DNA of 42,304 nucleotides from a virus (Duplodnaviria > Heunggongvirae > Uroviricota > Caudoviricetes): the IMG/VR virus record IMGVR_UViG_2734482773_000007; one strand, given 5' to 3'. The notes beneath the pieces were generated by a model that was not told where the DNA came from, did no database searches, and saw only the letters and a program-made list of their open reading frames with translations. Shown here one piece after another: positions 3,525 to 42,304 of this stretch. The stretch's first letter is position 1. Each line of letters begins with the position of its first letter. The translations under genes and the position numbers were made by a program.

Positions 3525-4442
3525 TTATAATAGTGCTGTTACTATTGCATCTTTAAAAATATTTTCTTCTTCATTTATTAAAGGTGATGACAGATGAATA
3601 ATTACTTCTTTTCCTGTCAATACTATTTGCTCGACTTGAAATCCTGCGTTGTGTAGTCTTTGGCGTAACTTTTCTAGTGCTGATTTTGATATACTAAATC
3701 CTTCACTCCTTATAGTATAACTGGCAACTCCATTTTTAATAATATCTACAGAGTTGTCAATTTCCTGCTGCGAGTAATTTTTCGGTGAGTCGAAAAATCT
3801 GGATTTTGTCGTTGCTGTTGCCCTAAGAGATATCAATAATGATTTGATATCTTTAATCTCAGATGCCAGATACTCAGTTTCTGATACTTCTTTCTGGTCT
3901 AGTTGTGCAACTTTGAAAGTGCCAAAATGTTTGAGGAATGTTGTGTATTCAGGATCAGTTACTGACTTTAAATATGTTTCTTTTATCTTGCTCGCAAGTC
4001 TTTCTTTGAATAAATTGATTGATTGGTATCTTAAATCCGAAGGGTACTCTAAATGTTCAATTGATGAAATGTCAAAGCTATAAGGAGTGCGCTCGTCCTT
4101 AATAATTACGGTCGGTTTGTCAAATGCGAGACGCATTCCTAATTCAAACATTACATTAGCGTTTCGAGCACTTATATCGCAAACAACTATGGGGTTTTCA
4201 TAAAGATTTTGAACAATTCGTTTTTGTATTACTGCAACATCATCATCTGAACTTACCAAATTTGCCTTGAATCCGGCATCATTTGATGCTTCACAAATAA
4301 TGTCATGAACATTTCTCCAATGTCCAGTGGGATAACCTTCTATGTCCGCAATTGGCATAATAATGCCGCATATATGAGGTGGCATATTTTTGTTGTCTTT
4401 TACATCATCTTGGTTTATTTCTTTCGTTTGTTGCTTAGCCAT
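3525..4442 (-). CDS. AT-rich accessory protein: N-terminal TIR-like/ThsB-like domain plus ~170-aa C-terminal domain of unknown function
   Basis: 305 aa; codon usage visibly AT-rich versus neighbours; N-terminal pattern IIMPIADIEG ... NPIVVCDISARNANVMFELGMRLAFDKPTVII resembles the beta-strand / N-V-x-x-E-x-G core of TIR-like (ThsB/DUF1863-type) folds; RBS AGGAGT upstream. Confidence 0.5.
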   Translation of the reverse strand: MAKQQTKEINQDDVKDNKNMPPHICGIIMPIADIEGYPTGHWRNVHDIICEASNDAGFKANLVSSDDDVAVIQKRIVQNLYENPIVVCDISARNANVMFELGMRLAFDKPTVIIKDERTPYSFDISSIEHLEYPSDLRYQSINLFKERLASKIKETYLKSVTDPEYTTFLKHFGTFKVAQLDQKEVSETEYLASEIKDIKSLLISLRATATTKSRFFDSPKNYSQQEIDNSVDIIKNGVASYTIRSEGFSISKSALEKLRQRLHNAGFQVEQIVLTGKEVIIHLSSPLINEEENIFKDAIVTALL

Positions 4443-5171: not shown

Positions 5172-5933
5172 TTACGAGGAAGCGTTAGCTATTTGAGCTT
5201 GTGTAAATTCGAAACCAGAATTTTGTAACCGTTGCACTAGACGAGGAACTGTTTCACGTACATGGTCGTTGAAATTCAGATACAAAATCCCGTTAGCATC
5301 AGAAGGCTGTTCTAGGTGCTGTTTCTGAAGGATTGCTACATTGCTGCGCCCTAAGGACGAAAGAAGCATACCCATCTCGAGTACAACGTTCTGTCTTGCG
5401 CGGGGTTGGATTTCTGCTTCACCGGCGCGCTTTGAGTATCCCATATCATCAGGTGTCAAAAGAACAATCCCGAAACGGGTAGCAGTTTGTCCTTGCCCAA
5501 TTTCACGTTCAAGCTCTTCAATAATGGTGAGTCCAGTCCCTCCCGTATTCTGCAAAATGAAATGGTCTGGTAATCCAAGTTTATGAAGGATTAGCTCAAG
5601 TTGCTCCTTTGCAGTATGGTCATGGCCGTGAACAATGAATATCTTTTTGGGGAGCTCAGATGGCTGTTCTACGGCTAGTGGTGTTGCCGTGGGTGGCGTT
5701 CCTAAATGGGTCATTATTGCAGTTTCAACATTGGGACGTTCTTGAGGGTTACCTTGAAACTGAATGGTCCGGGTGGTGTAAAGGTTAACAATTACGCCAT
5801 TCGTTAAACGATAGCAGTCACAAGTCTCACGCTGTTCGTGGGAAAAATTGGTGAACCCACACTCCCTCAAAAAGTCAGGAAAAGTTTCTCTCGGGTATGG
5901 ATAGGTGATCGGCATTTCAGTTAGTTCCTGCAT
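5172..5933 (-). CDS. two-domain accessory protein: N-terminal unknown domain plus C-terminal TIR-like domain (candidate anti-phage effector)
   Basis: 253 aa; C-terminal half KIFIVHGHDHTAKEQLELILHKLGL ... RFGIVLLTPDD ... ARQNVVLEMGMLLSSLGRSNVAIL matches what I recall as the TIR-like 'predicted nucleotide-binding' family signature (VFIVHG start, NV..E.G core); own terminator downstream. Confidence 0.55.
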   Translation of the reverse strand: MQELTEMPITYPYPRETFPDFLRECGFTNFSHEQRETCDCYRLTNGVIVNLYTTRTIQFQGNPQERPNVETAIMTHLGTPPTATPLAVEQPSELPKKIFIVHGHDHTAKEQLELILHKLGLPDHFILQNTGGTGLTIIEELEREIGQGQTATRFGIVLLTPDDMGYSKRAGEAEIQPRARQNVVLEMGMLLSSLGRSNVAILQKQHLEQPSDANGILYLNFNDHVRETVPRLVQRLQNSGFEFTQAQIANASS

Positions 5934-35771: not shown

Positions 35772-35788
35772 ATAAAATTAACGTTATC

Positions 35789-35813
35789 AAACCCGCTTCG
35801 GCGGGTTTTTTGC
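35789..35813 (+). terminator. rho-independent terminator (AAACCCGC-TTCG-GCGGGTTT + T-tract)
   Basis: Perfect 8-bp stem, UUCG tetraloop, U-run; 18 nt after cassette stop. Confidence 0.8.
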
Positions 35814-35830
35814 TTTCTGGAGCCTACTAA

Positions 35831-36583
35831 ATGGCAGTATCTGACCAGACCCGCAGCGGCGACCTTGCCGAAACATTCAAATCTGAACGGGAAACAACAA
35901 AGAACCAGATCCGTGTCGCCTTGCCTGGCATTATTCAGTCATTCGATCCTGATGCGGTGACGGCAGTTGTGCAGCCTGCTATCCGTTCGGTTGAAAAGGA
36001 TAATGACGGCAACCGCATTACCAAAAATTACCCATTGCTGGTGGATGTGCCAGTGGTATTCCCGCGCGGCGGAGGATGTACGCTAACATTCCCAGTTAAA
36101 GCCGGTGATGAATGTTTGGTGATTTTTGCCGATCGTTGTATTGATTTCTGGTGGCAGAGTGGCGGGATACAGGAGTCGGTCGATGACAGAATGCATGATT
36201 TATCGGATGCGTTTTGTATTGTCGGTCCCCAGTCGCAGGCAAGGAAGATTAGCGGTATTAATACCAGTGCCACACAGTTGCGTAGTGATGACGGCAGCAC
36301 CTATTTTGAGCTTAATCCTGATACCAGGAAAATTAAAATTGTCGCTCCAGGTGGTCTTGATGTGGTTGTCCCTCTGGCTGATTTTTCTGAGAAAGTAACC
36401 ATTCATGGCCTGTTAACCTGGATGGGTGGCATGGTGGGGTCTGTTGTTTCTGGTGTGGCTTCAAAAATCACTGGTGCTGTTGAGTTCTTGGGGAGCGTTA
36501 AGGCTAACGGCAAGCCAATCGATGATACGCACACTCATGGCGGTGTTCAGCGCGGTGGAAGCAATACCGATGGGGTAAACTGA
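35831..36583 (+). CDS. baseplate spike / assembly protein V-like
   Basis: 250 aa; gpV/Mu gp45-like position; Gly-rich C-terminus. Confidence 0.6.
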   Translation: MAVSDQTRSGDLAETFKSERETTKNQIRVALPGIIQSFDPDAVTAVVQPAIRSVEKDNDGNRITKNYPLLVDVPVVFPRGGGCTLTFPVKAGDECLVIFADRCIDFWWQSGGIQESVDDRMHDLSDAFCIVGPQSQARKISGINTSATQLRSDDGSTYFELNPDTRKIKIVAPGGLDVVVPLADFSEKVTIHGLLTWMGGMVGSVVSGVASKITGAVEFLGSVKANGKPIDDTHTHGGVQRGGSNTDGVN

Positions 36584-36936
36584 TGCGATACAGACGTGAA
36601 GACGCCGATGGCGATTACACCTTTGGCAGCGGTGATGACACCTGGCTGATTAACTCACCGGAGGCCGTGGCGCAGGCGGTAAAAACGCGATTCGAATTGT
36701 GGTATGGGCAATGGTTTCTCGACACCACCGAAGGGACTCCGTGGATCCAGTCCGTGCTCGGTAAGCAGAAGCCGGAAACCTACAACCTGGCGATCCGTAA
36801 GCGCATTCTGGAAACGCAGGGCGTTAAATCAATCCTCTCTTTCAATACGACGGTGGATACCACGACCCGACGTGTCATGTTTTCCGCTGAAATCGACACT
36901 CTTTATGGAATAACGACTGTTACATCGGAGGCGTAA
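36583..36936 (+). CDS. baseplate wedge protein (GPW/gp25-like)
   Basis: 117 aa, start overlaps upstream stop; position between V-like and J-like genes. Confidence 0.55.
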   Translation: MRYRREDADGDYTFGSGDDTWLINSPEAVAQAVKTRFELWYGQWFLDTTEGTPWIQSVLGKQKPETYNLAIRKRILETQGVKSILSFNTTVDTTTRRVMFSAEIDTLYGITTVTSEA

Positions 36937-38135
36937 TGGCTCTGAACCTTGATTCTCTCGGTTTATCTGCAAAGGTAACCGCGGAGGGGATCAGTGCGCC
37001 TGATTATCAGACGATACTCAGCACCCTGATTAGCTATTTTCAGCAGATTTATGGTAGTGATGCCTACCTCGAACCGGACAGCAAAGACGGCCAGATGGTG
37101 GCTCTGATGGCGCTGGCGATTCATGATGCCAATAATACGGCGATAACTGTCTACAACTGTTTTTCACCGGCAACCGGCTATGGGGCTGCACTGACCAGTA
37201 ACGTGAAAATAAATGGTATTTCACGTAAAGGCGCGACGAACTCTACGGTTGATTTGCTTCTTACAGGAACTGCCGGAACAACCATCATTAATGGCAGCGT
37301 GAAAGACAGTAATAATGTGATATGGCGTTTGCCTGCTTCAGTGGTGGTAGGCGTGGATGGTACAGTGATGGTGACCGCAACATGTTCCGTCAGTGGTGCA
37401 GTGGCGGCGCTGGCTGGAACTATCACTGAAATTAATACGCCAACCCGTGGCTGGGTTTCGGTAACCAATCCTGCTGCAGCTACTGTGGGCACTCCGGCAG
37501 AAACTGACGCGGAGTTACGTATCCGCCAGTCGCAGAGTGTTGCGTTGCCATCAATAACCCCATTTGAAGCACTGGATGGTGCTGTTTCTAATGTTACCGG
37601 TGTAACCCGCCACAAACTCTATGAAAACGATACTGGTTCGGAGGACGGTAACGGGTTACCGCCACACTCTGTTGCTGTAATTGTGGATGGCGGTGATGTA
37701 ACGGATATTGCTCAGGCTATCAGAGGGAATAAAGGCCAGGGGACAGCCACTCACGGTACAACATCCGTTACGGTTCCGGATAAATACGGCAATCCCCATG
37801 TAATCAAATTCTCGCGTTCCAGTGATGTGCCTGTTTATGCCCGGATTAAATTAAAAGTTTTTACGGGTTATACCTCACAGATAGGGCAGCAGATCCAGCA
37901 GGCTATTTCCGACTATATCAATAGTCTGACGATCGGTGATTCGGTCCTTTTAAGTCGCATTTACTCACCGGCGAATCTTGGCGTGGTGAGTGGCGGGAAT
38001 GCACGCTATTACGATATTCAGGAACTGACGATTGGTAAATCCCCGGGGGCTTTGTCGTCATCAAACATTGATATTAGATATAACGAATCTGCGTCCTGTA
38101 CCCCGAAAAATATCGTTATAACGGTGGAGTCATGA
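36936..38135 (+). CDS. baseplate J-like protein
   Basis: 399 aa; position and size. Confidence 0.6.
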   Translation: MALNLDSLGLSAKVTAEGISAPDYQTILSTLISYFQQIYGSDAYLEPDSKDGQMVALMALAIHDANNTAITVYNCFSPATGYGAALTSNVKINGISRKGATNSTVDLLLTGTAGTTIINGSVKDSNNVIWRLPASVVVGVDGTVMVTATCSVSGAVAALAGTITEINTPTRGWVSVTNPAAATVGTPAETDAELRIRQSQSVALPSITPFEALDGAVSNVTGVTRHKLYENDTGSEDGNGLPPHSVAVIVDGGDVTDIAQAIRGNKGQGTATHGTTSVTVPDKYGNPHVIKFSRSSDVPVYARIKLKVFTGYTSQIGQQIQQAISDYINSLTIGDSVLLSRIYSPANLGVVSGGNARYYDIQELTIGKSPGALSSSNIDIRYNESASCTPKNIVITVES

Positions 38136-38812
38136 GCAAATACACCGAACTAATCACAAACTACCACGCCACCAAACCTAAATTTCTTGCACATGTTGAT
38201 CTGATGACCCGGCCGCTTATTTATGTTGCGGCTGCCACCAGCGGGCTGATTACTGCATTTGATATTGACTCTGCGGTTGGTGTGCAACTTGACATTCTGG
38301 GATTGTGGATCGGACGTAGCCGTGTTGTCAGCCAGCTTATCTCAGGTATCTATTTCAGCTGGGATACCGACGGGCTTGGATATGATCAGGGTGTATGGCA
38401 GGGACCATACGATCCTGATTCCGGATACATGTACCTCAGCGATGAAATTTATCGTGTCATCCTTAAAGCGAAGATTGCGATTAATAACTGGGACGGACGG
38501 AATGATTCGCTTCCAGCAATTCTTGACGCGGCGACAGCAGGATCCGGGCTGCGAATGCAGATTGTCGATAACCAGGACATGACGATATCGGTCTGGGTCT
38601 TTCCTGATACTGATATTTCAGATGTATCGCGTGAGTTAATTGCTGCAATTAAACAGGGATATCTCACAGTAAAAGCCGCCGGGGTGTGGGCGGGTGACAT
38701 TGAAACACCTTCGGTGGAAACCCCATCGGAAGGCTCAAAATTTTTTGGTTTTGATATGGATAACGAATTTATCAGTGGTTTTGATGTAGGGGCATGGGGA
38801 GTATTACTCTGA
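38132..38812 (+). CDS. baseplate/tail protein I-like
   Basis: 226 aa between J-like gene and tail fibre. Confidence 0.5.
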
Positions 38813-39909
38813 TGGCAAAAAATGACTTTAAAACATTCGCAACGGGTAAAAATGCCAATGTTATGTCGCAGGAGGAATGGGAAGCGTTGCCTGCGCTTTT
38901 ATCCGGATTTACAGCAGGGAAAGCATCCAGTGCGCAAGTCAATAAGGTTATTCGGCAGGCCAGCTTTATTGCATCTGCAATAGCACAATATACAGCAAAT
39001 GAAAGTGGACTGGATGTACAGGACGATGGCGATCAGGCCGGCTTTATCGCAAAAATGTCGTCTGCATTAGATAAGAACTATCAGAGAATTAATGCCATAC
39101 TTACCGCACTTGCTAATCTTTCAGCATCCGAAAACAAATTACCGTATTTTACCAATCAAGATACCGCTAATTTGGCTGACCTGACACAGGTTGGGCGAGA
39201 TATTTTGGCAAAAAGCTCTGTTGCTGATGTCCTTAAATATCTTGGTTTGGAAAATAATTCGACCTTTCCTGTAGGTGCCCCGATCCCGTGGCCATCAGAT
39301 ACAGTTCCATCTGGTTATGCTCTGATGCAGGGACAGACTTTTGACAAGTCTGCATACCCGAAACTTGCAGCCGCTTATCCGTCAGGCGTGATCCCTGATA
39401 TGCGTGGCTGGACAATCAAAGGTAAGCCTGCAAGTGGACGTGATGTTCTTAGCCAGGAACAGGACGGCATTAAATCGCACACCCACAGCGCCAGTGCTTC
39501 AAATACAGATTTAGGGACAAAAAACACATCATCGTTTGATTATGGAACTAAATCTACGAATAACACTGGTGCGCATACCCATAGCGTTAGCGGAACAGCA
39601 GCTTCAGCAGGTGCACATACGCATCCGATATCTCAGGGGGATAATGCTAACGTTAGCTCCGGTAGAGTAGCTTCGTCGAACTCTGCTCAAACTCACTTAG
39701 GTGCAACGAATTCTGCTGGCGCGCATACCCACTCAGTATCAGGTACTGCAGCAAGTGCTGGGGCGCATACACATACTGTCGGTATTGGTGCTCATACGCA
39801 CTCCGTTGCGATTGGCTCACATGGACACACCATCACCGTTAACGCTGCTGGTAACGCGGAAAACACCGTCAAAAACATCGCATTTAACTATATTGTGAGG
39901 CTTGCATAA
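38812..39909 (+). CDS. tail fibre protein with internal His/Thr-rich repeats
   Basis: Start at ATG overlapping upstream stop (MAKNDFKTF); repeated [19 protein letters not shown] units; conserved C-terminal FNYIVRLA. Confidence 0.7.
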
Positions 39910-40481
39910 TGGCATTCAGAATGAGTGAACAATCACGAACCATCAAAATTTATAATCTGCTGGCCGGAACTAATGAATTTATTGGTGAGGGTGACGCATA
40001 TATTCCACCTCATACAGGTCTGCCAGCAAACAGTACCGATATTGCACCGCCAGATATTCCTGCAGGCTTTGTGGCTGTTTTCAACAGTGATGAGGCATCG
40101 TGGCATCTCGTTGAAGACCATCGGGGTAAAACCGTCTATGACGTGGCTTCCGGCGACGCGTTATTTATTTCTGAACTTGGCCCATTACCGGAAAATGTCA
40201 CCTGGTTGTCGCCGGATGGGGAGTTTCAGAAGTGGAACGGCACAGCTTGGGTGAAAGATGCAGAAGCAGAAAAACTCTTCCGGATCCGGGAGGCGGAAGA
40301 GAAAAAGACAAGATTAATCCAGGAAGCGACTGATAACATAACAATTCTGCAGGATGCCGTTAATTTTGAAATGGCAACTGATGAGGAAATCTCGATGCTA
40401 TCTTCCTGGAAAAAATACCGGGTATTAGTGAGTCGGATTGATATAAATACAGCCCCGGATATCGTATGGCCAGAGCTGTGA
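39909..40481 (+). CDS. tail fibre assembly protein (Tfa)
   Basis: 190 aa; typical Tfa features incl. C-terminal ...IVWPEL; directly after fibre gene. Confidence 0.7.
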
Positions 40482-40491
40482 TTAAACGGAA

Positions 40492-41037
40492 TTATGTGTG
40501 AGATGAGTTATAAATAATTTCAGAGTGAAATTTAGTAATGAATGTGGAGTCATCAGGAATGTCATGCAGTACCAATGCATGAGCTCCTATTTTTACATTA
40601 TTCCCTATATGCACTTTGCCACCAAGGATGGTGGCGTTACAGCCAATGGTTACATTATTTCCTATGACAATATCCATATCATTAAATTCACCGCGAAGTC
40701 CAATAGTTACCCCTGGCTTAATTGAACAATTTTCACCTATTGTAACTTTGTGACCGATAACAACGCCATTGAGATAAGATATGTCGAACCCTTTACCAAT
40801 ATTTACAGTTAAGGGAACGGTTACATTGTATTTATCAAGAATGAAGCGTTCTATTTTTCCTGCAATCTTTCGCCGGTATCCTCCTTTATCAAAAAGATAT
40901 TTTGCTACGCGCCACCAAAATAAATAACGTAATCTTCTGTGTTTTATTGCGCGAACAATTGCTTTTCGCCAGGAGAAAGGGCGTTTATAACCTATTACTT
41001 CATAGTGTATACAGTTTTTAAGTTCACTAATATTCAT
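40492..41037 (-). CDS. hexapeptide-repeat acyltransferase (left-handed beta-helix; candidate lysogenic-conversion acetyltransferase)
   Basis: 181 aa; repeated [LIV]-G-x-x-x-x-I-G units (VVIGHKVTIGENCSIKPGVTIG ... IGNNVTIGCNATILGGKVHIGNNVKIG); AT-rich; convergent with Tfa, 10-bp gap. Confidence 0.7.
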   Translation of the reverse strand: MNISELKNCIHYEVIGYKRPFSWRKAIVRAIKHRRLRYLFWWRVAKYLFDKGGYRRKIAGKIERFILDKYNVTVPLTVNIGKGFDISYLNGVVIGHKVTIGENCSIKPGVTIGLRGEFNDMDIVIGNNVTIGCNATILGGKVHIGNNVKIGAHALVLHDIPDDSTFITKFHSEIIYNSSHT

Positions 41038-41121
41038 ATGTCTATTATTCAGTAAAGATAATTCTGTAACTTATTATTATATTAAGTTTAATGAGATTTT
41101 TCTACAGTTTACTGTCTTACT

Positions 41122-41250
41122 CTCACGCCGGAGCAATGGGCGCAGGCTGGACGACAAATTGCATCAGGAGTTTCTCGCCAGAAAATGGCGATCATCTATG
41201 ATGTTGGCGTATCGACTTTGTATAAGAAGTTTCCGGTCGGAGATGAATGA
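41122..41250 (+). pseudogene. 3' remnant of a serine DNA invertase (Pin/Gin/Hin family), C-terminal HTH only
   Basis: Hand translation LTPEQWAQAGRQIASGVSRQKMAIIYDVGVSTLYKKFPVGDE* matches my recollection of the Pin C-terminus; in-frame stop at 41092 and only 84 bp separate it from the acetyltransferase start, so the catalytic domain is absent. Confidence 0.6.
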
Positions 41251-41252
41251 AA

Positions 41253-41285
41253 CCGTGGCACGTCGTATGCAAGAACGTGCCACGG
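41253..41285. other. perfect 10-bp inverted repeat CCGTGGCACG-N13-CGTGCCACGG
   Basis: Read from sequence; lies right after the invertase-remnant stop and downstream of the minus-strand gene 41332..41979; possible terminator. Confidence 0.4.
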
Positions 41286-41331
41286 CTGGCTGATAAGCTT
41301 GTAAAAATCTTGAACAGGGAGTGGAGCATTT

Positions 41332-41979
41332 CTATGAAGCTAATTTGTTTAATTTCATTTGTAGCGACTTTACTTCTTGGTCGATAATGTTGAATCCCTT
41401 ATTGACTGCATCTCTTAGTTCTGCATCAATATTTTTTATCCCTTGAGCATAATCTACCATTACATCTATTTTTTCATCATGTAATCTCTTATACATGGTT
41501 TTATCTTTGTTATTGTCAGCCATACCAATAAGGATTTTTTCATAATCCTCAATGAGTTTGTTGTTTCCTTTAAATGATTGTATTAATGACCGTGAATATG
41601 TGTAGATATTAATTATTGAGTCTCTGGCAGAATCATTTAGTTTTGCAATGACATTCGCATTTTGCTCATAGAATGTGAAATTATCATCCCCTACAGGGAA
41701 AGTGAGAATTAACATCTGTCCGGGTTTGATATTATCAATGTGTGTTTTCATCCTTTTATTATATAAATTGATTAGGGTGAAAACTTCTCCCTTAACACCT
41801 TTTAATACTGAAAGTTGCAATTCAAGGGATTCTCTTTCTGTCTCTACTTTAGACAGCTTAGCTTGTTGGGTAACTCCTTTTAGGGTAAACCATCCGCCAA
41901 TAAGAGTACCAACTAGAGCTGTGAGGGAGGAGGATAACCATCCAGGAATGCTATTTAAAAAATTACTAAATTCACTCAT
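41332..41979 (-). CDS. AT-rich hypothetical protein with N-terminal transmembrane anchor
   Basis: 215 aa; N-terminal hydrophobic segment LSSSLTALVGTLIGGWFTL then coiled-coil-like region; strongly AT-rich. Confidence 0.5.
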   Translation of the reverse strand: MSEFSNFLNSIPGWLSSSLTALVGTLIGGWFTLKGVTQQAKLSKVETERESLELQLSVLKGVKGEVFTLINLYNKRMKTHIDNIKPGQMLILTFPVGDDNFTFYEQNANVIAKLNDSARDSIINIYTYSRSLIQSFKGNNKLIEDYEKILIGMADNNKDKTMYKRLHDEKIDVMVDYAQGIKNIDAELRDAVNKGFNIIDQEVKSLQMKLNKLAS

Positions 41980-42037
41980 TATAAGTACTCGCTAATATTG
42001 AACGATATATATATCAAATTATTATAAAACTCGTCAG

Positions 42038-42304
42038 CTACTGGAGAAGGCTACCTGAACTTCGATCTATTCCTGCATCCATATAGTTGATGGTCTTCTG
42101 GAGCTCTTCGATTAGGGCAACAGCTTTTGCTCGAGAAATGCATATTAGTTGATCCGGAAATTCTTGTAAGGGCCAGTTTGGTATACAGGCCATGTTATCA
42201 GTGAAGGATGCAGACAAGTAAACTTCATTGGTAACCAGAGAATAGCTTACCTCAAAATTGGTGAGTTCCGGCAAACTGCTAACGTTTGACTCTTTTCTGC
42301 GCAT
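42038..42304 (-). CDS. hypothetical protein (N-terminus at window edge; may extend beyond)
   Basis: 88-aa ORF whose ATG coincides with the last three bases of the window, so the true start may be upstream outside the window. Confidence 0.35.
   Translation of the reverse strand: MRRKESNVSSLPELTNFEVSYSLVTNEVYLSASFTDNMACIPNWPLQEFPDQLICISRAKAVALIEELQKTINYMDAGIDRSSGSLLQ

Follow-up and report, generated by a model that had tools for sequence, protein, structure and literature searches.

A fibre, tfa and acetyltransferase-like gene block with a truncated Pin invertase at the tail fibre locus of an Escherichia coli prophage

The right end of IMG/VR virus record IMGVR_UViG_2734482773_000007, a stretch of 42,304 nucleotides (the window, to which all coordinates refer unless another locus is named, position 1 being its first letter), carries a tail fibre gene, the chaperone gene tfa, a hexapeptide-repeat acyltransferase-like gene on the opposite strand and the last codons of a Pin invertase gene. 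We consider it probable that a mobile host-range cassette replaced a Pin-invertible fibre switch here by recombination, with a selected, tfa-linked accessory gene aboard. The window represents a complete-looking E. coli prophage of ~40 kb with an integrase gene at 470–1873 and a contractile tail of the DUF3383/DUF3277 type, and in a near-identical genome (NZ_CP116169) the chromosomal site lies between yfhL and yfhH. The late operon ends in baseplate genes, the fibre gene and tfa, and from there the locus is composed as follows.

38812–39909, plus strand: hybrid tail fibre gene with Collar and Phage_fiber domains (mechanical start of the open reading frame at 38794)
39230–39255, plus strand: degenerate pix-like sequence TCCTTAAATATCTTGGTTTGGAAAAT, with 17 of 26 bases equal to pixL of the sister prophage L002, a match equalled by ~10% of shuffles
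39909–40481, plus strand: tail fibre assembly chaperone Tfa, 190 aa (Pfam Caudo_TAP, E 4.5e-38; phrog_105, E 1.8e-93)
40492–41037, minus strand: acyltransferase-like gene of the hexapeptide-repeat (left-handed β-helix, LbH) type, 181 aa, convergent with tfa across a 10-bp gap
41076–41104, minus strand: best sigma-70-like promoter match of the region, TAGAAA-17 nt-TATAAT (−35 at 41104, −10 ending at 41076), 10 of 12 positions, reading into the acetyltransferase-like gene
41106–41121, no strand assigned: junction where the acetyltransferase cassette, at its right edge, meets the truncated invertase; every chromosomal copy has this junction sequence
41122–41250, plus strand: Pin invertase pseudogene, codons 143–184 and the stop (41248–41250), with an HTH_7 domain alone, the catalytic domain and start codon missing
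41253–41290, plus strand: perfect hairpin with an 11-bp stem, 3′ of the pin stop, at the right end of the block common to lambdoid prophages
41332–41979, minus strand: backbone right-end gene, 215 aa, with a predicted N-terminal membrane segment and (with its neighbour) a GC content of 0.30–0.38, which marks the return to backbone and follows intact pinE in sister prophages

The tail fibre locus and its homology blocks

The replacement of a switch is best seen by comparison with L002, a sister prophage of the same backbone type at the same yfhL/yfhH site in strain 23CRST009. The order in L002 is fibre, tfa, tfa′ (opposite strand), the C-terminal part of a second fibre (opposite strand), intact pinE and the same 215-aa gene, and its two 26-bp pix sites lie in inverted orientation at 3585–3610 and 5495–5520. 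The window is 96.7% identical to L002 over 35786–38972 and 41122–42304, with no match between. Because L002 retains the ancestral fibre/tfa/tfa′/fibre′/pinE arrangement and its pix sites at the same site, these alignments indicate that the host-range switch is really replaced in the window prophage. The context in which the 3′ end of pin is followed by the 215-aa gene is found in 77 genomes; among the 60 listed, 22 are annotated with a stub and the remaining ones with an intact recombinase, and a figure of ~55 intact copies is reached if the unlisted records are counted as intact. Since the intact recombinase is in the majority in this context, the intact switch is the common state in this backbone, and probably the ancestral one. 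The window follows e14 and L002 in order and orientation (fibre and tfa on the plus strand, an opposite-strand slot, the invertase on the plus strand), which is its likeness to the e14 P segment with Pin, the Mu G segment with Gin and the P1 C segment with Cin. It differs from these invertible switches in having no catalytic domain, no crossover-site pair and no alternative fibre set, and in its fixed state.

The invertase remnant suspected in the sequence-only reading, an earlier interpretation made from the letters and open reading frames, is borne out, at 42 codons plus the stop rather than the ~43 codons then given. The plus strand at 41122–41250 translates as LTPEQWAQAGRQIASGVSRQKMAIIYDVGVSTLYKKFPVGDE followed by the stop, and frame 1 read from 41038 runs into LTLTPEQWAQAGRQIASGVSRQKMAIIYDVGVSTLYKKFPVGDE and a stop. 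Residues encoded at 41122–41247 are 90% identical to residues 143–184 of the 184-aa PinE (tblastn, E 4e-21) and match Pfam HTH_7, the resolvase helix-turn-helix (HTH) domain (PF02796, E 5.3e-9); tblastn found neither PinE residues 1–142 nor any other invertase-like sequence elsewhere in the window. The stub thus has the HTH_7 domain of an invertase and lacks both the resolvase catalytic domain with its active-site serine and a translatable reading frame: upstream there are in-frame stops and no usable start codon, and the first in-frame ATG would leave ~21 codons. An identical stretch is labelled in RefSeq as a pseudogene "missing N-terminus". The stubs of the three lambdoid copies examined (L019, L020 and L005) carry a nonsense mutation in a Trp codon (TGG to TAG or TGA), and the window keeps TGG at 41137–41142, which fits a more recent contact with intact pin, or chance.

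The block that contains this stub extends well beyond it. Window positions 39268–41292 form one continuous block, 97.0% identical to a lambdoid prophage of the enterotoxigenic E. coli (ETEC) strain H10407, which comprises the last ~213 fibre codons, tfa, the acetyltransferase-like gene with its upstream region, the pin stub and the hairpin. In H10407, J, lom and stf are followed by tfa, the acetyltransferase gene, the pin stub, a dinI-like gene and then chromosomal prfC. The same block is found in an O177:H21 strain, and ATCC 8739 has an IS1-truncated version at its lambda attachment site; dozens of RefSeq genomes already contain the arrangement in annotated form. The junction between the region upstream of the acetyltransferase-like gene and pin (41040–41200) occurs in 65 of the 5426 complete E. 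coli genomes surveyed, in identity classes of 94–100%. These 65 junctions equal in number the 65 chromosomal copies of the acetyltransferase-like gene, and the truncation is therefore best read as one old event that has since spread. As the block common to the lambdoids includes the stub, the scar is older than its arrival in the window prophage.

The left side of the exchange lies within the fibre gene. Its N-terminal ~55–60 codons are of the prophage-backbone type up to 38972, where homology to L002 stops, and from 39268, where homology to the lambdoid comparison locus L019 begins, it encodes a lambda Stf-like C-terminal receptor-binding part; the fibre 3′ end and tfa are together 94% identical to lambda orf-314/orf-194. 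The open reading frame at 38794–39909 is an intact hybrid of 365–371 codons whose beginning coincides with the stop codon of the baseplate gene before it. The equivalent gene in NZ_CP116169 is flagged by the annotation pipeline PGAP as "incomplete, missing N-terminus", and this pseudogene call is probably an artefact of comparison with the much longer Stf proteins.

On the right, the lambdoid-type homology (39268–41292) and the backbone-type homology (41122–42304) overlap only in the stub and the hairpin, and the first single-nucleotide differences of the stub agree with the lambdoid copies. The hairpin has the form CCGTGGCACGT(9 nt)ACGTGCCACGG, with a folding energy of −25.6 kcal/mol (z = −4.6), and stands 3′ of pin in intact and truncated copies alike; position 41285, at which the sequence-only reading had ended its region, falls inside it. 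It is not a classic intrinsic terminator because it has no T-run. In many genomes of O157:H7 and other Shiga toxin-producing E. coli (STEC), the 38-bp element is found by itself as well, without annotation.

These observations suggest a mechanism in which the donor would most likely have been a lambdoid prophage with pin already truncated and the recipient an L002-like prophage with intact pin. The right crossover would have used homology between the stub and hairpin of the donor and the intact pin of the recipient, and the left crossover would have fallen within the fibre gene. Such an exchange would have left the prophage locked in one fibre type, without an invertase and without usable crossover sites.

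The sequence-only reading had also proposed a search for residual gix/hix-like sites around 40482–40491 and 41038–41121: none flanks the gene, and a 26-bp scan near both places returned only chance-level matches. Neither the gix/pix core AAACCNNGGTTT nor the pix sequences of L002 had a match within 3 mismatches, and an inverted pair of 26-bp crossover sites flanking an invertible segment, both members of which are present in L002, is not found in the window. The lambdoid, P2-like and P1-like cassettes begin to align with the window 10–13 bp to the right of the pix-like sequence at 39230–39255. This sequence has no partner site; from its position it may be a relic at the old constant/variable boundary of the fibre gene.

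Identity, selection and context of the acetyltransferase-like gene

That the opposite-strand slot holds a hexapeptide-repeat acyltransferase was correctly recognized from the sequence. The 181-aa product has the tandem repeats of the LbH superfamily (Pfam Hexapep, E 1.1e-13, plus Hexapep_2) and matches PHROG 2154, a family of unknown function, over its full length (E 7.9e-78; residues 1–180 on profile positions 4–184 of 185). Its best solved relatives are serine acetyltransferases (SATs), with which it aligns over the LbH domain (E 1e-13). With the short SATs, EpsC and WcaB (NF041874, TIGR01172, TIGR04016), its best sequence relatives, it shares an architecture of four N-terminal helices followed by an LbH domain of similar length. 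It differs from them in scoring below every cut-off, in the replacement of the dyad and serine-binding residues, and in a phage context in place of a biosynthetic cluster. The curated profile scores are 85.4 bits for EpsC (cut-off 150), 77.6 for cysE (TIGR01172; cut-off 210.65), 52.7 for NF008349 (cut-off 397) and 59.1–59.6 for WcaB (cut-offs 194.65–196), and a Pfam search gave no match to SATase_N (PF06426). The protein is accordingly not of the EpsC or WcaB type, scoring below the cut-offs and standing in a phage or prophage in all genomic contexts examined.

The roles of the SAT active-site residues (N. gonorrhoeae numbering) and the E. coli His158/Asp143 dyad are known (PMC8786284), and the corresponding columns were read from ungapped alignment stretches bracketed by IGKG and GVVIG.

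SAT Asp147, window Thr73: catalytic dyad column (E. coli Asp143)
SAT Asp161, window Ser87: serine-binding column (E. coli Asp157)
SAT His162, window Tyr88: catalytic dyad column (E. coli His158)
SAT Glu170, window His96
SAT Arg196, window Met121: serine-binding column (E. coli Arg192)
SAT His197, window Asp122: serine-binding column (E. coli His193)

The same six residues are found in all 40 close IMG/VR copies. A subclade at 52–54% identity (P0013–P0015) also has Tyr at the His position, and P0014 and P0015 are without any His in the LbH domain. The acidic residue and the His are both kept in 37 of 37 more distant phage homologues (35–52% identity), and distant bacterial homologues retain the dyad and the Arg-His pair. 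By these alignments, the gene is descended from short serine acetyltransferases. Because the active-site columns are replaced and the scores fall far below the cut-offs, its product is, as judged from sequence, not itself a serine acetyltransferase, and its chemistry is either non-canonical or absent. A monomer model from AlphaFold2 (AF2), built on a 32-sequence alignment, reached a mean predicted local distance difference test score (pLDDT) of 69.8 overall and 50–65 in the LbH domain, too low for the model to be used for a fold search or for active-site geometry. Binding to CysK through a C-terminal Ile tail, as in SAT, was considered and ruled out, the C-termini being unconserved and not ending in Ile.

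The gene is nevertheless not decaying. Comparison with the P2-like copy gives a dN/dS of 0.075 and with the P1-like copy 0.117, and in the second Tyr-type subclade the value is 0.047 (L016 against L014); ratios of ~0.1 indicate strong purifying selection.

Several properties identify it as a moron-type accessory gene and not a housekeeping one, in agreement with the sequence-only reading. It is present in 91 of the 5426 genomes and absent from L002, its GC content is 0.35–0.38 against ~0.47, and it lies on the strand opposite to the late genes; among the complete E. coli genomes there are 27 plasmid copies and 65 chromosomal copies. The low GC content, the opposite strand and the promoter-like site fit an accessory gene expressed from the prophage; it probably has its own promoter and is probably expressed in the lysogen. 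The promoter-like site falls within a stretch that is also conserved in cassettes lacking a pin remnant, whose homology reaches to 41105–41111.

Relatives at ~50% identity are all prophage cargo, situated at prophage ends or adjoining tfa. A convergent Caudo_TAP gene, of one of several Tfa types, lies 34–80 bp past the stop codon in 21 of the 35 divergent IMG/VR homologues with downstream DNA, a count that is a lower bound since six Tfa queries were used. In Streptococcus thermophilus phages, a "serine acetyltransferase" is likewise placed after the receptor-binding genes (PMC6213268). A 208-aa homologue of the His type (~48% identical) is found in E. coli next to mntR (L006–L009), at a P2/HP1-like prophage end beside a DUF4760 protein; it lies 4.4 kb from tfa and is not adjacent to it. 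The same allele as in the window is carried by the O177:H21 strain, ETEC H10407, ATCC 8739 and STEC, strains of very different sources, and a substrate specific to one O serotype is therefore disfavoured. Searches of the PADLOC defence libraries gave no match for the acetyltransferase-like gene or the two downstream open reading frames. No functional study of the SAT-like family was found in the literature, which held only passing mentions of a "serine acetyltransferase, role unknown" (PMC9603915, PMC6456863, PMC6213268).

Parallel cases in other phages and other genes of the prophage

The fibre tip, tfa, the acetyltransferase-like gene and ~70 bp upstream of it (window 39265–41105/41111) recur as a cassette at 82–84% identity in the P2-like phage vB_EcoM-613R2 and, at the same identity, in P1-like phage-plasmids adjoining lydA/lydB/darA, the usual place of the C segment and cin. 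No invertase remnant was found by tblastn in the P2-like and P1-like cassettes L003 and L004. The P1-like IMG/VR contig L071 (3525–3761 and 4001–4543) presents another case: a 43%-identical homologue, its Asp/His dyad retained, is flanked by U′ and by a cin/pin remnant of which codons 1–79 are left, again adjoining lydA/lydB/darA. Here the invertase gene was truncated independently and from its other end. Pin stubs also stand by other cargo. One of 159 nt follows a glycoside-hydrolase-family-55-like protein that replaces stfP in a prophage at dusA (L021, NZ_OW967003), and one of 372 nt is found in a prophage of the same DUF3383 type at a different chromosomal site (L022, NZ_CP042250). Together with L071, these stubs indicate that invertase scars at swapped fibre modules are commonplace.

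Mosaic exchange of fibre C-terminal and tfa modules among lambda, P2, Mu, P1 and e14 is reportedly the subject of classic work by Haggard-Ljungquist and by Sandmeier. The window resembles such exchanges in that the tip and tfa move as a unit between unrelated backbones with the boundary at the constant/variable junction, and differs in that the unit adds a convergent accessory gene and a fossil invertase end, the latter apparently used as a homology arm. In the P1-like phage-plasmid JL22, S/U is replaced by tfa and a "serine acetyltransferase" whose role was called unknown (PMC9603915). This is the same kind of replacement by the same gene class, and P1-like E. coli plasmids carry an acetyltransferase-like gene 90% identical to that of the window; however, the sacF of JL22 itself is 37% identical, and the plasmid copies have no invertase stub, or an N-terminal one (L071).

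A further point of comparison is NeuO of prophage CUS-3, a prophage-encoded LbH enzyme that acetylates the K1 capsule (PMC3046976). Both are prophage-borne members of the LbH acyltransferase superfamily, NeuO itself being a cytoplasmic product of a lysogenic-conversion gene, but the window protein belongs to another LbH subfamily, with only a weak match to the related OatWY (E 1.1e-3 over 49 residues). The window gene has neither the catalytic His that is essential in NeuO nor the heptanucleotide repeat by which NeuO varies in phase: the catalytic His/Trp pair of NeuO/OatWY and the 5′ variable-number heptanucleotide repeat are absent, and no NeuO-like tandem repeat indicative of phase variation was found in the gene.

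To the right of the hairpin, the 215-aa protein has no match in Pfam, NCBIfam, PHROG or PADLOC. The last gene (42038–42304, minus strand; GC 0.30–0.38) encodes an 88-aa protein of phrog_17793, a family of unknown function, and, like the 215-aa gene, belongs to the backbone, both being found 3′ of intact pinE in sister prophages as well. Far to the left, adjoining the DNA polymerase gene of the prophage, 5172–5933 (minus strand) encodes a 253-aa protein with a Toll/interleukin-1 receptor (TIR) domain (Pfam CAP12-PCTIR_TIR, E 2.9e-31). It matches the PADLOC candidate defence family PDC-S35 (E 6.8e-109) and is likely a prophage-borne anti-phage defence gene.

Origin and function of the cassette

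A fundamental question is how an accessory gene and a broken invertase came to stand where a fibre switch is expected. One hypothesis, that of the sequence-only reading, is a local insertion in the window prophage in which the acetyltransferase gene replaced the inverted fibre pair and deleted most of the invertase, its product being an O-antigen acetyltransferase that converts serotype or excludes superinfection. The slot and orientation agree with the e14-type layout of L002, the gene stands out by a low GC content and an opposite-strand position, and prophage-encoded LbH O-acetyltransferases such as NeuO do exist (PMC3046976). However, the fibre tip and tfa were exchanged too, and the identical junction and stub recur in lambdoid prophages at other chromosomal sites with up to 6% divergence. 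The O-antigen role is opposed by the missing dyad, by the lack of a polysaccharide locus around any relative examined and by the occurrence of one allele in strains of diverse source, so that surface polysaccharide modification and serotype conversion found no support and the hypothesis as a whole appears quite improbable. What survives of it is the replacement of a switch, which L002 retains; what does not is an acetyltransferase insertion in this phage, since the whole block 39268–41292 is shared with lambdoids. It might also be asked if the stub is kept for a function, be it as a small regulator of the HTH type or by acting in cis on the acetyltransferase-like gene, given that it is maintained at 94–100% identity in 65 genomes and that its frame is open in the window copy. 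The HTH has no start codon ahead of it, a nonsense mutation interrupts each of the three lambdoid copies examined and the P1-like and P2-like cassettes do entirely without the stub, and we therefore hold such a role to be very unlikely.

An imported cassette replacing the switch accounts best for the locus, and certain observations weigh against this reading and against the function proposed for its cargo. The segment 38973–39267 matches neither L002 nor L019; more than one event is possible, and the left side may therefore have a more complex history. We infer the direction of transfer, from lambdoid to window prophage, from block structure and frequency, and the reverse is possible. Promoter use and biochemical function are likewise matters of inference, whereas the layout of the locus, its homology blocks, the common junction, the exchanged residues and the purifying selection are seen directly in the sequences. 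Promoter-like matches in the region are no more numerous than in shuffles, the proposed promoter being a consensus match, and the adjacency to tfa could merely mirror a general cargo hotspot (bioRxiv 10.1101/2024.10.15.618418). As to function, all six alignable SAT active-site positions are replaced, the Asp/His dyad included, the nearest non-phage relatives resemble true short SATs and not glycan acetyltransferases, and no polysaccharide gene cluster was seen around homologues in the contexts examined.

What, then, might the protein do? For the family at large, we propose, by analogy with genes such as neuO that modify receptors and stand beside receptor-binding genes, an acyl-coenzyme A-dependent change of an envelope glycan precursor, which would affect phage adsorption through receptor masking or lysogenic conversion. 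That the window allele itself acylates such a precursor and so alters adsorption is possible but rather doubtful, because its active site is remodelled, a link to polysaccharide loci is lacking and the same allele occurs in diverse strains. Some LbH N-acyltransferases of the QdtC/WlbB type function without a catalytic base, and loss of the His is thus no proof of lost activity. Alternatively, the protein might be a pseudoenzyme, or an enzyme whose catalytic centre has moved or is new, with a function other than glycan acetylation: it could bind and block an enzyme of the host, have a protein or small molecule as its substrate, or take part in defence or counter-defence. Consistent with this alternative are the loss of both dyad residues and of the serine-binding Arg/His, the strong purifying selection that persists even in the 52%-identical Tyr-type subclade (omega 0.047), and the absence of His from the LbH domains of P0014 and P0015. 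His96 and Asp122, which occupy the SAT active-site positions of Glu170 and His197, might form a relocated dyad in the window subclade. On the other side, His96 is not conserved throughout the Tyr clade, PADLOC gave no match to support a defence role and no conserved partner gene adjoins except tfa; on balance we regard this alternative, the chief competitor of glycan acylation, as somewhat unlikely. We give almost no credence to a genuine serine O-acetyltransferase acting as an auxiliary metabolic gene that raises cysteine synthesis. Its basis is the PGAP name "serine acetyltransferase" and the best PDB and NCBIfam similarities, which are to SAT and EpsC, and it is contradicted by scores far below the cut-offs, the lack of SATase_N and six substituted active-site positions.

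A bolder and, in our view, unlikely hypothesis would place SAT-derived LbH proteins among the tfa-linked accessory proteins of phages as a widespread class, encoded convergently behind tfa in lambdoid, P2-like, P1-like and other phages. The window clade would then comprise either pseudoenzymes, which would, for example, sequester a receptor-biosynthesis intermediate or enzyme and block superinfection, or enzymes with a centre relocated to His96/Asp122 and a new acceptor, with a switch traded for receptor control. If this were true, one would conclude from the repeated arrival of such genes at the cost of invertible fibre switches that phages give up host-range switching in exchange for control of the receptor.

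As an event, the imported cassette is ordinary prophage mosaicism, since the exchange of fibre modules is well known, as are cargo hotspots behind tfa, one of which has been described for receptor-binding proteins (bioRxiv 10.1101/2024.10.15.618418). Modestly new are the systematic link between a SAT-like family and tfa, and the loss of the dyad in a clade that is still under selection. The locus offers a clean, datable example of fibre modules, and with them host range, moving between unrelated temperate phages, and it illustrates how a dead gene fragment can serve as a homology arm that brings cargo along. It also draws attention to a mis-named family: PHROG 2154 and its relatives, habitually tied to receptor-binding genes, go in RefSeq under the name "serine acetyltransferase". 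Should this family prove to modify envelope glycans or phage receptors, that would bear on phage therapy, on serotyping and on the prediction of host range.

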